Assembly (NCBI RefSeq): GCF_055900595.2 | Contig: NZ_CM148325.1 | DNA length: 64,000 nt | Reading direction: 5' to 3' (one strand) | In this document: positions 6,001 to 12,000 of the stretch, in pieces | Layout: the number at the start of each line of letters is the position of its first letter | How positions within the stretch are numbered: position 1 is the stretch's first letter | Made by a program: the position numbers

Positions 6001-9000
6001 GGGCATGATTTTCCCAGTGATGATGTTACGACGGGCTTTGGTGTAAACACCATAGCCCACTTTCATCAACTTACCTTCGTTTACCAGTGTACGAAGAGCT
6101 CTGCCAACCTGATCATAGCCAGCGATATCCCTGAAATCATCCCGGGTGAACACATAACGTTTTGAACGGTTCAGTCGGGACTGAATACGGTCTTTTGTAG
6201 TCATGTTTCCTCCGAAAAATTTTCACAATGATAGCAAAAATATGACATGTTTAATAGCGGGGCAAGGCCACATTACCTGTCTGCTAATACATTTGGATAG
6301 TGCCTGGCAATTATGTCATTTAGCCTGTCAACCAGTTCTGGTTTCCTGAACGTGATGTGTGCGGAGCCCTTCTTAAAGTATCTGATGCTGAACATCTCAT
6401 CTTCATAGCACGCTTTGCCCTGAACGGAGCGGATGTGATCATCCAGCCGAATGATGATATTTTCCCGGCTGTCGGGGATCGGTTTGCCGCTGAACAGATG
6501 CAGCATTCTTTCCAGGTCAGCGAGTCGATCTGCCTGTTGCCCGGTGATAAGATGCAATCCCCATCGGTCCCATCTCACCAGATTGTTGACGATAATTTTA
6601 TTGCCAAATTTACAGGGGCAATTGGTTTTGTAATTCCAGCTCAGACCTCTGAAGAGGTTGATCACACCTCGCTCAAACACGTCATCCTTATTCTGGTGCA
6701 GTTGTTCAAACGTACTCAGGATATTCGCCTCGCTGATTTCCGGAAAGTTATCGTACTCCAGTGAGCGGTACCATGTATCATGGGCCTGCGCATCCATTAA
6801 TGACAGCATCCCGGAACGTTGCATCAGGTCACGCCAGATTTCGCGATCGAGATTGCGGGTGATGGCTTTCATTGCGGTTTCCGGTTTCTCCATGAGCCTG
6901 CAGCCGCAGCGAAAATCCTGTTTCATGGCCCAGTCCCGGGCGGTTTTACCGCCAATGCTTTCCGTCAGTACCGAGATTTCAGCCAGTTGCCGGATAAGTG
7001 TGTCGATTTGCAGCAGCGCACTCTTTCGTACAGCCAGAATGTGGCGGATACTAGTTGAGCAGATAACGTCCGTATGTCCGTTGACCAGTTCCGGGCGGGA
7101 GATTGTGATATCTGACATCATCGTTTTTCCTTTTGGTTTATAAACGAAAACGCCAGCCGTATTCAGGCTGGCGTCAGTGGAATAAAGTCTGGTGAGTAAG
7201 ACTCACCTGTTCTGTTGCAGAAGCTGCAGTTGGCGCAGGGTACGGATATCTTCCCTGGCCTGTTCAATGCAGGGCAGCAGTGCTGCTGAATCCGTTTTAT
7301 CCTCATCGTTGTCGAAGATAATCCCTGATTCGCAGTCAATATTGTCCTGCAGCCACGCAATCAGAATATCCAGCGCTGTTTCCGTGGTTAATGATTTCAT
7401 GTTGTGAATTTCCGGGTTACCAGTCGAAAGTGGGTAAATCCGGCAGGCATTCAGCGCTGGCATCCAGATGAATGAGACTGACGCCATAACGTCGGGTAAG
7501 TGTGACAACCAGACGGCGGAACGTTTTTGACAGCCCCAGGCGTTTAAGCCGCAGAACCGGGTATGACCACGCATCGGTACGTAACAGATATCCGCTACCT
7601 GTAAAATGAATCCATTCTGATTCGCCGGTGTCATTCGTCTGATGCGACAGCGAGTACAGCCAGGCGTTGTCTGTTTCCGTGATATGCGCGGTACTACAGC
7701 GTATACCGCTCAGGGCAGCAGAGGGGGGTATGCTGTCTGTTGAGGTCCGGTCAGATTCATCAACAACACGAAGGGAGTAGCCATTATCGCAGACCACGTT
7801 AATCAGTTCGGCAAGCTCAACACCATCGACGTCAACGACAATTCGCCCCATGTTCAGTGCCTGTACGTTAACGCTGTCAGCTTCCAGCGTCAGGGCCAGT
7901 TTCATCGTTTTGCCTCCGGATGCTTGCCCTGGGTAATGTTATTTACCATTCTGTAATTGTTCCGGGTCATCAGGCCGGTCGCCCTGCGAGCCCGGAGAAT
8001 ATCAATGCTGTTGATTAACTGCGACGGGGCTCCTGCGCTGAATCCCGGCTGGTCGGTACGTACCAGCGCGTATTTTTCAACGAGAAAGTTCACCGCGTCA
8101 CACAGTGAAATCCCTGCCTCAATATGCTGCTCAATCACACGTTCATCAGCGAACGGTGTGTCATTCAGCGTGAGGCCATAGTGCTGGTCCAGCAGTCGGG
8201 TGAGCAGTGTCTGCCAGATGGTGACGGGAGACGGGCAGCGCGATGCCGCCCGTACGTGTGTGTCGGGTAATGTTTTCATACTGAAGATTTTCCTGATATG
8301 CAGATATAAGAAATGGAAAAGTGGCGTGGAGAAAGCACCAGGCCGGAGCAGAAGACTATTCCGGAGGGTTACTTTCCGTTTCGGTCGCAGGATAAACAGC
8401 CAGATAAACGTAACCACAGGACCCGAGGGTGTCGGCATCGCAGGTCAGCCCTTTCGCATACAGCGTGACGGTATGCTGATGGCGGGGATTCAGTTCACCG
8501 CTGGTGAGCATGAGTTCCAGTTGTTTCATCAGCAGTGGAAAAGCCTGGTCCAGATGGTATGCATCCGCATTGCTGAACCGGCCCCTGATACCGGCGCGGT
8601 CTGCAAGGTAATGCAACCGGTTACCCTCCTGCAACAGACGGGCGCCGAAACAGGGCGTCACGGTGCAGGGCAGCCCCCACCAGGGGCGGTCTTTGTTGTC
8701 GTCGGGAAGCGTTGTTCCGGGGAGTGTGTCCGACATGATAAAATCCTCACAGAAAATCGGTGAATGATAGTTTAACGATGACGGGTCAGCCGGCGCGCAG
8801 ATCGGCTTCGGTGAAGGTATATTCGTTGATGAGAAGGGCCTCATCCACAGCGGTGTCTGAGGTCAGCCAGTCGTACTTGTTTTCCAGCTGGCGGTACAGC
8901 CAGAAGGCCAGGTCGCGCAGGGCTTCGCTGACAGCGGCTTCCGCATCGGTTGTCATTGCCTGACCAGTCGGACTGTTCCGGGTGACGGTGATATCCATGC

Positions 9001-12000
9001 TGTACGGATGGCAGTAACGTCCCCGGTGACTGATTTCAGCCTGAAGCTGCCAGAAGTTACGTTTCTGCACCGCATGCAGGGTATCCGCGATACGATGAAG
9101 CTCACGGTCCTGAGGGGCATATTCCCTGATTTTCCGGGGTGTCGCTGGCTGCCAGTGCCAGTGCCCTTCAAAACAGGCTCCGTCCCCCTGGCTGCAGAAT
9201 CCGCTGAACCAGATGCACGGCTCTTCCATAAACCTGCCGTTGCTGAGCCGGAAAACGCGCTGGCGGAGGTCAATTCCGAAAATGCCACAGACCTCCCTGA
9301 AGTCCTCATACACGTTTTCATACCAGTTGCTGTCAGCATGATGCTGACGGTACCAGTCGCGGGCTTTTTCCTGTGCGGTGGAGGATAGCTCATGCAGTGT
9401 ATACACGGTGGTGGTGATAATTCTGCTCATCAGAATGCCCTTACTGACTCAGTTCAGAGTGACGCTCATCAGCCGGACATACGGGCCAAAACTGTCCTTA
9501 CGGCGTTCAGCAAATACGGCCAGCACACCGGGAATATCCTGCACTTCACGACCGGTATACGTTTCAGTGCTGCCGTGCCAGCGGTATTTGCCGGTACAGA
9601 ACGGAAAAAGACGGGATGCAGGATGCTGTTGGTGAATACGCATGGCTTCACCACGGGTGATGATTTTCATAATGGGATACCTCTGAAGACAGAAGATAAA
9701 AGTGAAAACAGGTGTGATGTGGTTGTGACGGGTTAAAGCAGACCATGTTCGGCAAAGGAGAAAACCTGGCTGCCACCGACTATCAGATGGTCCGGCACCC
9801 GGATATCCACCAGGCCCAGTGCCTGTACCAGACGTTCCGTGATAAGCCGGTCTGCCTTGCTGGGTGTGACTTCACCGGACGGGTGATTGTGCGCCAGTAC
9901 CACGGCAGCGGCATTGTGGTACAGGGCGCGTTTAATCACTTCCCGGGGATGGACTTCCGTGCGGTTGATGGTGCCGGTGAAGAGGGTTTCACCGGCAATC
10001 AGCTGATTCTGGTTATTCAGATACAGCACCCGGAACTCTTCACGCTCCAGTCCCGCCATGTTCAGAATCAGCCATTCCCGTGCCGCACGGGTGGAGGTGA
10101 AGGCCACACCGGGTTCATGAAGATGGCGGTCCAGGGTTTTCAGAGCCCGCAGAATGAGACTGCGCTCGCCGGGCGTCATTTCTCCGGGCAGAAAGGAAAG
10201 CTGCTGCATTGTCCCTGCCTCCATTCAGTCGATGATGCGCATAATGGCGCTGCATTCCGGATGCTGCAGGGCGTAATCCCGCAGCCGGTAATAATGGACC
10301 GTCATGGCATAACACTCCGTACGACAGGCGTGATGACTGTACGTCATCAGACAGGCAGCAATGCCAGCGGCTTCCGGGCTCATTTCAGCGCGGTTGCCGT
10401 TCATGGCATTGAACAGTACCCATGTTTCGTCATCATCGTCATCCGGTTCGGGGGCCATAAATGCCCCGCCGTTGTTCAGGGTGTACAGATTCCAGATACC
10501 ACCGCAGTAGTCTTCGCACAGACGGTCCATCCAGCCGAAAACACGGGGCTCCAGGGCCACCCACTGTGGAATGAGGCCAAAATGCTGCGGCCAGAAGCTG
10601 ATGCGCTGTTCATCAGGGACTATGGTGGCAACCAACTGAGGCTGGTCATTCCCTGATGCAGCGGTTACGGAAACAGAAGATGTGGTGGAATTATGTGAAA
10701 TGGTTTTCATGAAATGACTCCTTAAAGGACAAATAAATGCGTGGTTTTCAGGGTAATGGCTGAATCAGCGCAGGCTCTCCAGCAGGGTTTCCGCCATCAC
10801 CCACAATGCGCGGTTGAGCTTAATGTCAGTGTCAATGCTGTGAATGGCACGGGTATGGATACGTTTTCCTTTAGCGCTGCGACCTGAAATTCCGCCTTTC
10901 AGCATATTCTCCTGAATGGTCTGATAAGCACTCCACAGGTCCTTACCGTAATCCTCCCGGCGTCGTGGCGTCAGAATGTCGGCGGTGGTGACGGGCTGAT
11001 GTTCGTCACCATAACGGTAAGTCAGTGCCGCCTGTGCCAGCGCCTGGCGTACCGGTGGCGGCAGAATCAGCGACTGCATGGCATCACGCTTTTCCTCAAT
11101 CCGGTCAAACACGCCCACTACCTCGTAAGCCCCTTCAATGACTCTGTCCACCACATTTCCCCGGTGCGGAACACGCACTTCCCCCAGAGACTGACCACAG
11201 ACGCACCCGTTCTGGCAGACGAACCTGAAGTAACCCGGCAGCATCTGGTAGCTGGAGGTACCGTCATGAGAGTTGAGCAGAATAATTTCAGGGACATGTT
11301 CTCCGTTTATCTCTCCGGCCCGCCGCAGACGCAGCATGTGTTTTGTGTATCCCCGGCGGCCCGGGTCGCGCACACGGGTCTGGCAGGCGAAGAATGGCTG
11401 AAAGCCTTCCCGCTGCAGGCTTTCCAGTACGGTGATGGTGGGGATGTACGTATAGTTCTGGCTTCGGGACGTGTGTTTATCTTCCCCGAAAATCCCCGGC
11501 ACATAGTGCATCAGTTCTTCGTGTGTCAGCGGACGGTCACGGCGTATCTGGTTCGCATAACCAAAACGACTGGCTAGTCGCATAATTTGCTCCTTATCGG
11601 TGGTTAAGATTTACTGGTGTAATAAATGAAAAAAGCCGCGTCTCCCGGAGAAGACGCGGCCTGATGGATGAAATCAATGAGGTTTATTGTCTGAGAAGCC
11701 CTCCACTGGCGAGCCACGCATTAAGCTGTTTTCCGGCATCAGCTTCAGAGTTCCGGCAGCGCCAGCGTCGCTGACCTTCCGCGTTGCGGATAACCCGACG
11801 GAAATGCATTCCCGGGTCATCCTGGATAAACACATTGCGGTAAGCGGTTATGACAGCAACCGCCTGCCCGTATGAGAAAGATCCTTCAGCCAGGACATAC
11901 TCTGTGTAACCCAGCATATCTGTTTTCTCCTGATAAATAAAAAGCCTCTGCCACGCGTTGTGACAGAGGCTGAAGCATGAAACTGACTTCAGGGATCAGT

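Follow-up and report, generated by a model that had tools for sequence, protein, structure and literature searches.

What gene separates yeeT from the cbeA-cbtA toxin-antitoxin pair in a CP4-44-type island, and does it belong with that pair? The question arises from a 64,000-nucleotide stretch of contig NZ_CM148325.1 (NCBI RefSeq assembly GCF_055900595.2; hereafter the window), where an earlier note, made from the DNA alone, described an unassigned ORF in this interval and suggested that it may be either extra cargo or a modifier of the toxin-antitoxin module. The gene is already known: it is a common, catalogued E. coli island gene, neither new cargo nor a demonstrated component of that pair.

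The ORF and its protein family

The ORF occupies 8786..9430 on the minus strand, starts with ATG, and encodes a protein of 214 aa whose translation contains the string ...MEEPCIWFSGFCSQGDGACFEGHWHWQ... quoted in the earlier note. The richness in Trp, His, and Cys described there is likewise confirmed by counts of 8, 9, and 5 residues, respectively. The product is a 25-kDa, acidic protein (pI 5.6), cytoplasmic by sequence, and is 100% identical to the RefSeq annotated CDS product WP_000086757.1. A second RefSeq protein, WP_000094916.1, named “DUF8835 domain-containing”, shares 93% protein identity with it, the DNA of that copy being 97.2% identical. Apart from this name, which appears in some records, RefSeq lists the gene as “hypothetical protein” or, in older usage, as “antitoxin of toxin-antitoxin stability system”.

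Profile comparison matches the protein to PHROG 5162 with E=2.9e-36, aligning residues 2-210 with profile positions 2-195 of 201. Its supposed unassigned status thus gave way once protein and profile searches were run, since the gene is annotated in RefSeq and belongs to DUF8835 / PHROG 5162. The difficulty of placing it in a family is nonetheless borne out by the searched copies of Pfam (a copy without a DUF8835 model), NCBIfam, and PADLOC, which return no family for the 214-aa protein, for the family consensus, or for two phage homologues. Similarly, 132 diverse family members give no convincing match in the same Pfam copy. Searches of the PDB with phmmer and with profiles yield nothing better than E 0.45, and the sequence, profile, and PDB searches together find no homology to any characterized protein. 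The AlphaFold (AF2) model shows one domain, predicted with confidence (pLDDT 86.7, pTM 0.80), and has no Foldseek match in the PDB at E<=0.001; its matches in BFVD are all uncharacterized phage proteins. Searches of the literature on DUF8835, its WP accessions, the legacy name, and the sets of neighboring genes yield nothing about the protein.

The family is large, with 6227 clusters at 50% identity at E<=1e-3 and 1097 at E<=1e-30, and its median pI is 4.75. The best 150 relatives are stand-alone proteins of ~200-225 aa, with one exception that carries a 166-aa tail. Four motifs are conserved, SGFxSQGDGAxFxG, APxDxELHxIA, YxH, and ANEYxFxxxG, and the polar residues kept family-wide are E14, Q81-G-D83-G, D108, H141, and N202. 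A conserved zinc site was considered and rejected, as the cysteines are kept only in close relatives. The label “RNA polymerase binding protein” on the homologue from Acinetobacter phage CP14 was also set aside because the annotation of that record is unreliable, with neighboring ORFs of 45-75 aa labeled DNA polymerase, clamp loader, and the like.

Six intact E. coli copies, compared in 15 pairs, give dN/dS values of 0.19-0.33, with up to 25% of synonymous sites differing. These values, together with the ~60% amino-acid identity of alpha-proteobacterial homologues to the 214-aa protein and the 6227 clusters, indicate that the gene is under selection. The annotated identical CDS, the conservation in thousands of proteins, and the same dN/dS range likewise place the ORF far beyond chance.

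The island block and its K-12 derivative

Pfam matches bear out the neighbors named in the earlier note. On one side lies the DUF987/yeeT-like gene (9449..9670, minus strand; PF06174, E=3.7e-39), separated from the 214-aa gene by a spacer of 18 nt. On the other side, after 49 nt, lies cbeA, which encodes a YeeU-family type IV antitoxin (8356..8736, minus strand; PF06154, E=5.6e-54; start taken from the identical RefSeq locus), followed by the toxin gene cbtA (7902..8279, minus strand; PF06755, E=1.9e-61). Further upstream on the same strand are a yeeS-like gene for a RadC-like JAB-domain protein (9733..10224; PF04002, E=1.5e-44), an antirestriction gene of the ArdB/KlcA type, Pfam “Antirestrict” (10225..10710; PF03230, E=2.4e-37), and a DUF932 gene that is the first of the co-oriented array (10765..11583; ORF and annotation of the identical locus). 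The conserved block of E. coli CP4-44-type islands runs in the order DUF932, antirestriction, RadC, DUF987, [DUF8835], CbeA, CbtA, DUF5983, and DUF957. The window holds no second copy of this module. A different ORF of 272 aa, at 49291..50109 of the window, encodes an IS integrase.

A consensus scan finds terminator-like hairpins just upstream of the DUF932 gene (11662-11633) and after the DUF957 gene (7149..7175, minus strand) and none on the minus strand between 11566 and 8109. Given the hairpin at 7149..7175 and the clear interval, the array from DUF932 to DUF957, with the 214-aa gene included, could form a single transcription unit. The single promoter-like site, at 8764-8735, was not accepted as the promoter of cbeA, because its -10 hexamer runs into the start codon of that gene and because shuffled sequences gave more such sites.

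The K-12 arrangement described in the earlier note, with yeeT directly preceding cbeA, is accurate for CP4-44 of MG1655, where cbeA follows yeeT after 73 nt and the 214-aa gene is absent. The comparison of yeeT-cbeA intervals shows, however, that the gene in the window is not extra cargo. The K-12 spacer keeps the ATG and first 8 codons of the gene (MSRIIATT), after which the cbeA leader begins. The retained 5′ end implies that the module originally included the gene and that the K-12 arrangement is the scar of a 645-bp deletion. Accordingly, the window carries no insertion, and the K-12 CP4-44 module is the derived, deleted state.

Of 5426 complete E. coli genomes, at least 3113 have the K-12-type junction. 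The gene itself is present in 2016 of the 5426 and is a standard, annotated member of these modules. By places rather than genomes, it is found at 2921 sites as compared with 12897 for yeeT, i.e., in ~23% of yeeT-bearing modules. The 645-bp frame is intact in most sampled E. coli copies. Pseudogenes also occur: the HM670 copy contains an internal stop, and the copy of E. coli B is frameshifted. Several independent deletions and chimeras exist as well (H124, H125, P0038, and P0044). This frequent loss and pseudogenization shows that the gene is dispensable for the island in which it resides.

The same losses, from the two pseudogenes to the deletion shared by the genomes with the K-12-type junction, could be taken as signs that the E. 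coli gene no longer has a function and is decaying as a relic of a conjugative element that has itself degraded. The low dN/dS among intact copies despite their synonymous divergence, the intact frame in most of them, and the strong conservation across bacterial classes make such a relic very unlikely. The locus is best described, with a probability of about 95%, as an intact, selected DUF8835 (PHROG 5162) gene that is a regular, often deleted member of the CP4-44-type block and that K-12 has lost by a 645-bp deletion.

Relation to the CbeA/CbtA pair

The position of the gene, co-oriented with cbeA and 49 nt upstream of it, invites the view that the 214-aa protein serves the CbeA-CbtA type IV module as a third component or as a modifier, for instance by tuning the antitoxin or the release of the toxin. 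Rare natural in-frame DUF8835-CbeA fusions of 342-343 aa (P0002, P0021, and P0026) point in the same direction, as do the legacy NCBI name and the Phaeobacter plasmid pP97_c, in which the homologue is directly followed by a different toxin-antitoxin pair, ParS/RES.

These observations are offset by others. The gene and the pair do not co-occur constantly: only ~23% of E. coli yeeT-bearing modules have the gene, and the K-12 modules, whose CbeA/CbtA proteins are functional toxin-antitoxin pairs, lack it. A toxin-antitoxin pair adjoining the homologue is absent from four of the five alpha-proteobacterial contexts and from all phage contexts seen, and none of the alpha-proteobacterial plasmids, integrative and conjugative elements (ICEs), or phages examined has CbeA/CbtA beside a homologue. 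The 214-aa protein has no Pfam match to PF06154 (CbeA_antitoxin) or PF06755 (CbtA_toxin), in contrast to the strong matches of its neighbors, and no match to Phd/YefM/StbD-type antitoxins in Pfam or NCBIfam, whether the cutoff is E<=0.01 or is relaxed to E<=10. The fusions resemble plain loss of a stop codon in an allele in which the spacer keeps the reading frame by chance. As a crude probe of interaction, the AF2 prediction for such a fusion (pTM 0.58; CbeA part pLDDT <50, with few CbeA alignment rows) yields no confident interdomain model and weighs in neither direction.

The phrase “antitoxin of toxin-antitoxin stability system” appears in the literature only as a generic COG label, and its evidence is untraceable; as a name for this gene, it is without support. 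The modifier role suggested in the earlier note thus finds no positive support, and an involvement of the protein in the CbeA-CbtA module is improbable.

Contexts outside E. coli and a candidate role

Outside E. coli, the family recurs in mobile elements of other kinds. In five alpha-proteobacterial plasmids and ICEs, the homologue lies near genes for ArdC, DUF2958, a large ParB-N protein, DUF932, and RadC, with a strawberry-notch helicase/methyltransferase, toprim, DUF2493, and SSB also nearby; in pOT1-2, it is ~18 kb from the relaxase gene, a distance that lends no support to a place in a leading region. These alpha-proteobacterial homologues have a ~137-aa partner for which tblastn finds no counterpart in the window and which shows no detectable relationship to DUF987 (BLASTP E=0.087). 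A distant metagenomic relative is flanked by two RadC genes and one ParB_N gene. Phage homologues (25-38% identity) sit in arrays of small genes that all run in one direction, close to genome ends or within terminal repeats, and in places adjoin replication genes. Iyer et al. 2017 (PMC5512222) place these neighbor families in the early invasion phase of phages and conjugative elements.

One reading of this company is that the protein acts as an accessory in DNA processing or maintenance of conjugative elements rather than in counter-defense, serving replication, partition, or strand conversion together with a ParB-like protein, the strawberry-notch helicase/methylase, toprim, or SSB. The large ParB_N protein and the helicase/methyltransferase-toprim pair are indeed its constant neighbors in the alpha-proteobacterial elements, and RadC and ParB_N accompany the distant relative. 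However, the gene persists in the E. coli islands even though their block offers it neither a ParB-like protein nor a helicase or toprim as a partner, the phage homologues lie among small end-of-genome genes or beside replication genes but not within them, and no nucleic-acid-binding fold or motif is detected in the protein. A role in DNA processing is therefore unlikely.

The company of antirestriction, ArdC, RadC, and SSB genes, along with the small-gene arrays near phage genome ends, makes the gene an anti-defense candidate. On this guilt by association, the protein is tentatively proposed to assist mobile elements as an accessory factor shortly after their DNA has entered a new cell, in establishment or counter-defense, a role for which the odds are somewhat short of even. 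Counting against it are the lack of homology to any characterized protein, the frequent loss and pseudogenization in E. coli, and the distance from the relaxase gene in pOT1-2. Under this proposal, the gene would share a transcript with the antirestriction and RadC genes. Its product, predicted to be a soluble, acidic alpha/beta protein of roughly 25 kDa, may bring E14, Q81-G-D83-G, D108, H141, and N202 together in one putative catalytic or ligand-binding site and would act on a host or DNA target rather than on CbtA/CbeA. A bolder and more doubtful extension is that DUF8835 constitutes a new class of early-acting counter-defense or establishment enzyme of lytic phages, conjugative plasmids and ICEs, and E. 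coli pathogenicity-island backbones, with a new fold and a conserved E/Q-D/D/H/N site, or else a regulator of the adjacent CbtA/CbeA recruited in Enterobacteria.

For the window itself, the gene matters little, being a catalogued hypothetical present in more than one-third of complete E. coli genomes. Two corrections follow from its analysis: the K-12 “reference” module is a derived state, and the old antitoxin product name is unsupported. Beyond these, DUF8835 is a reasonable candidate for anti-defense screens, as a lead rather than a finding.

Among known systems, DUF8835 and PHROG 5162 are one and the same family, which is without a solved structure and of which the window protein is a full-length member that shows no difference. 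CbeA (YeeU) resembles the 214-aa gene in being a co-oriented neighbor within the same block and in its rare read-through fusions; it differs in length and predicted secondary structure and shows no sequence similarity, and the co-occurrence of the two is facultative. The LPD/PBECR and related Pfam models of polyvalent proteins are not matched by DUF8835, yet its neighbors RadC, ArdC-N, the MTase-helicase dyad, ParB, toprim, and CbtA are among the solo and polyvalent-protein domains described by Iyer et al. 2017 (PMC5512222). No fold or sequence match to known antirestriction or other anti-defense proteins of solved structure is found in the PDB, Foldseek, and PADLOC searches, and no similarity to the antirestriction proteins ArdB/KlcA (PF03230) and ArdC is detected in sequence or fold. 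These proteins nevertheless share gene arrays with DUF8835, the KlcA type in E. coli and ArdC in alpha-proteobacteria, and like DUF8835, they are small, acidic, cytoplasmic, and common to conjugative elements and phages.

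The DUF8835 gene within its module

The gene at 8786..9430 (minus strand) is listed as an ORF of 214 codons with an ATG start, preceded 8 nt upstream by the Shine-Dalgarno-like motif AAGGG. The earlier note placed it between yeeT and the cbeA-cbtA pair, and this is confirmed: the string quoted there occurs in the translation, and Pfam identifies the neighbors, all on the minus strand, as genes for an antirestriction protein (10225..10710), RadC/JAB (9733..10224), DUF987/YeeT (9449..9670), CbeA (8356..8736), and CbtA (7902..8279). The spacers are short as described, with 18 nt from the yeeT stop to the DUF8835 ATG and 49 nt from the DUF8835 stop to the cbeA ATG. 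The product (25.2 kDa, pI 5.6) harbors 8 Trp, 9 His, and 5 Cys. Terminator-like hairpins lie on the minus strand before DUF932 (11662-11633) and after DUF957 (7175-7149), and no strong hairpin of this kind was found on that strand between them. This placement is compatible with, and weakly indicative of, a single DUF932-to-DUF957 transcript that would include the DUF8835 gene. The sole promoter-like match overlaps the cbeA start codon and was discounted.

By megablast, 2016 of the 5426 complete E. coli genomes contain the 645 bp of the gene, with 2921 places in total, almost all of them on chromosomes. The top matches are 100% identical, keep the gene order of the window, and correspond to the RefSeq CDS WP_000086757.1 ("hypothetical protein"); newer annotation reads "DUF8835 domain-containing" (misspelled "DUF8835 domain-containing pootine" in NZ_CP103562.1, NZ_CM192165.1, and NZ_OZ546938.1). 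The protein matches PHROG 5162 (unknown function) end to end (E=2.9e-36). No family model was matched by the 214-aa protein in scans of the Pfam, NCBIfam, and PADLOC copies used, or by any of 132 diverse relatives in a Pfam scan. The legacy name in other records, "antitoxin of toxin-antitoxin stability system", amounts to a generic COG label; the literature using this phrase consists of genome papers on unrelated organisms, none apparently about this protein. The gene is thus already known as an uncharacterized DUF, common and annotated. The earlier interpretation is only partly borne out; the gene proves to be a standard, annotated member of these modules, the outcome that the note had named as refuting it.

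The window as a whole looks like an ExPEC pathogenicity island. At 1-4000 and 15164-63854 it carries kps capsule genes (at the low end), Ag43 (15164-18289), a YeeP-like GTPase gene, a DUF3987 gene, two IS66 transposases (26462-28036 and 51699-53270), two TonB-dependent receptors, and a 1299-aa SPATE autotransporter (54649-58548); no tRNA gene was found in the 64 kb. The AbiEii/AbiGii-like toxin ORF at 5076-5816 (minus strand), which adjoins an intact DUF6088 (AbiEi-like) gene (5809-6204), encodes 246 aa versus 297 aa in the intact homologue of strain HM670. At the FDAARGOS_448 locus, whose DUF8835 gene is 100% identical, the matching gene is annotated as frameshifted, and the ORF in the window is probably a pseudogene. 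The IrmA-like gene and Ag43 flank an 840-aa ORF with several hydrophobic stretches (12527-15049, minus strand), which takes the slot of K-12 yeeR; RefSeq names it "hypothetical protein", and a Pfam scan gave no match.

Deletion in K-12 and rearrangement elsewhere

In CP4-44 of MG1655, yeeT is followed after 73 nt by cbeA, in agreement with the earlier note. Alignment of both loci shows that K-12 has 12 nt in place of window positions 8761..9405 (645 bp). The K-12 spacer (locus L003 9040-9112, equal to MG1655 2077039-2077111) still reads TTCTGATGAGCAGAATTATCGCCACTACCG, a stretch that preserves the DUF8835 gene's ribosome-binding region and ATG along with its first eight codons (MSRIIATT). From there the spacer joins the cbeA leader CCGATTTTCTGTAAGGATTTTATCGTG and now gives a 16-codon remnant ORF without annotation, MSRIIATTGPFLADFL*. 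Because the start and eight codons are retained, the aligned loci mark K-12 as the deleted form and the window as free of insertion, contrary to the proposal of extra cargo. Sequence comparison shows the gene to belong to the ancestral module and to have been lost often. At least 3113 of the 5426 E. coli genomes contain the K-12-type junction as a contiguous match. For yeeT there are 12897 places, spread over 4799 genomes; therefore, approximately 23% of yeeT modules keep the 214-aa gene.

Other, independent lesions include an internal stop in HM670, a frameshift in E. coli B, and partial remnants (nucleotide matches H124 and H125). Among the protein matches, internal deletions have produced the chimeras P0038 (antirestriction::DUF8835) and P0044 (DUF8835::DUF5983), and an internal 69-aa duplication is listed with these and P0001 among the rearranged products. 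Together, the chimeras, rearranged products, and partial remnants indicate recurrent internal deletions in the island block, and the frequency of deletions makes it evident that the gene is dispensable in E. coli.

Natural in-frame DUF8835-CbeA fusions of 342-343 aa (P0002, P0006, P0009, P0012, P0014, P0015, and P0019-P0027) have lost the stop codon and continue through a 15-nt spacer allele (...FTEAGLRAG-LPEDFIV-SDKLHE...). Such fusions are rare, with one member per 90% cluster, and an AlphaFold2 model of one has a pTM of 0.58, with pLDDT <50 in the CbeA half. These fusions and the adjacency to cbeA favor the suggestion that DUF8835 modifies the CbeA/CbtA module; nothing further was found in its support, and we consider it improbable.

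Coding constraint and predicted structure

Among six intact E. coli copies (dS 0.06-0.25), all 15 pairs have Nei-Gojobori dN/dS values of 0.19-0.33. Salmonella, Klebsiella, and Citrobacter, as well as alpha-proteobacteria (among them Stappia, Mesorhizobium, Devosia, and Pleomorphomonas), have proteins that are ~60% identical and likewise exactly 214 aa long. When 1.84 billion cluster representatives were searched with a profile, 6227 matched at E<=1e-3, 1097 of them at E<=1e-30. The gene is shown to be real, under selection, and part of a catalogued but functionally uncharacterized family, and the intact copies under selection disfavor its being purely a relic.

Conserved family-wide are E14-L15, G77-F78-x-x-Q81-G-D83-G-A-x-F87-x-G89, P106-x-D108-x-x-L111, Y139-x-H141, W177-x-Y179-x-x-L182, and N202-x-x-x-F206-x-x-x-G210; the cysteines are not kept, and the family is acidic (median pI 4.75). 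AlphaFold2, with a 28-row alignment, confidently predicts a single alpha/beta domain (pLDDT 86.7, pTM 0.80), modeled as two N-terminal helices, a six-strand meander, two helices, a hairpin, and a long helix with a short one. Foldseek against the PDB gave nothing at E<=0.001, sequence and profile searches of the PDB were empty, and matches in BFVD were only uncharacterized phage proteins (best E=3.3e-8); thus, no solved relative was found.

Relatives in mobile elements and phages

In five alpha-proteobacterial plasmids or ICEs (a Pleomorphomonas chromosome and plasmids of Phaeobacter, Sphingobium, Asticcacaulis, and Haematobacter), the DUF8835 gene lies inside a co-oriented block encoding ArdC (ArdC-N and metallopeptidase), DUF2958, a ~710-aa ParB-N protein, a ~1440-aa strawberry-notch helicase/methyltransferase, toprim, DUF2493, DUF6878, and SSB. 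The Phaeobacter block additionally has DUF932 and two RadC genes. In Haematobacter pOT1-2, the element to which the block belongs also bears RepA/ParA, a putative relaxase, TraG, and a Trb operon, a layout that we take to resemble Tn4371-type ICEs.

In all five contexts, DUF8835 is preceded by a conserved partner of ~137 aa, an acidic protein with pairwise identities of 37-82%, whose stop overlaps the DUF8835 start by 8 nt (loci L004 9592-10008, L013 8589-9008, L021 8598-9008, L022 8598-9008, and L023 8592-9008). For the Pleomorphomonas copy, the one of the five looked up, the Pfam listing shows no match. The partner is missing from the window, and no relation to DUF987 was detected. The two genes look like a cassette whose partner gene E. 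coli lacks. Of the five, only Phaeobacter has a toxin-antitoxin pair after the DUF8835 gene, and it is of a different kind: in P. porticola pP97_c, a ParS(Xre)/RES NAD+ phosphorylase pair follows directly (L013 9704-10803), so that an unrelated module takes the CbeA/CbtA position.

Phage homologues (25-38% identity), including CcrColossus gp015, those of other Caulobacter jumbo phages, and one on a metagenomic phage contig, belong to arrays of small genes on one strand, located close to genome ends or within terminal repeats. Another distant relative is accompanied by two RadC genes and one ParB_N gene. The label "RNA polymerase binding protein" on the homologue from Acinetobacter phage vB_AbaM_CP14 (OP585105.1, locus L025) was set aside, as the annotation of this record appears shifted or unreliable; neighboring ORFs of 45-75 aa bear labels such as DNA polymerase and clamp loader.

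From this gene content, DUF8835 may be part of the establishment or counter-defense gene pool of mobile elements, and it would probably act via a putative site of conserved polar residues. As a large, structurally unmatched family, it is worth including in anti-defense screens. The early-invasion domains described for phages and conjugative elements include RadC, ArdC-N, methylase-helicase dyads, ParB, toprim, and CbtA (Iyer et al. 2017, PMC5512222).
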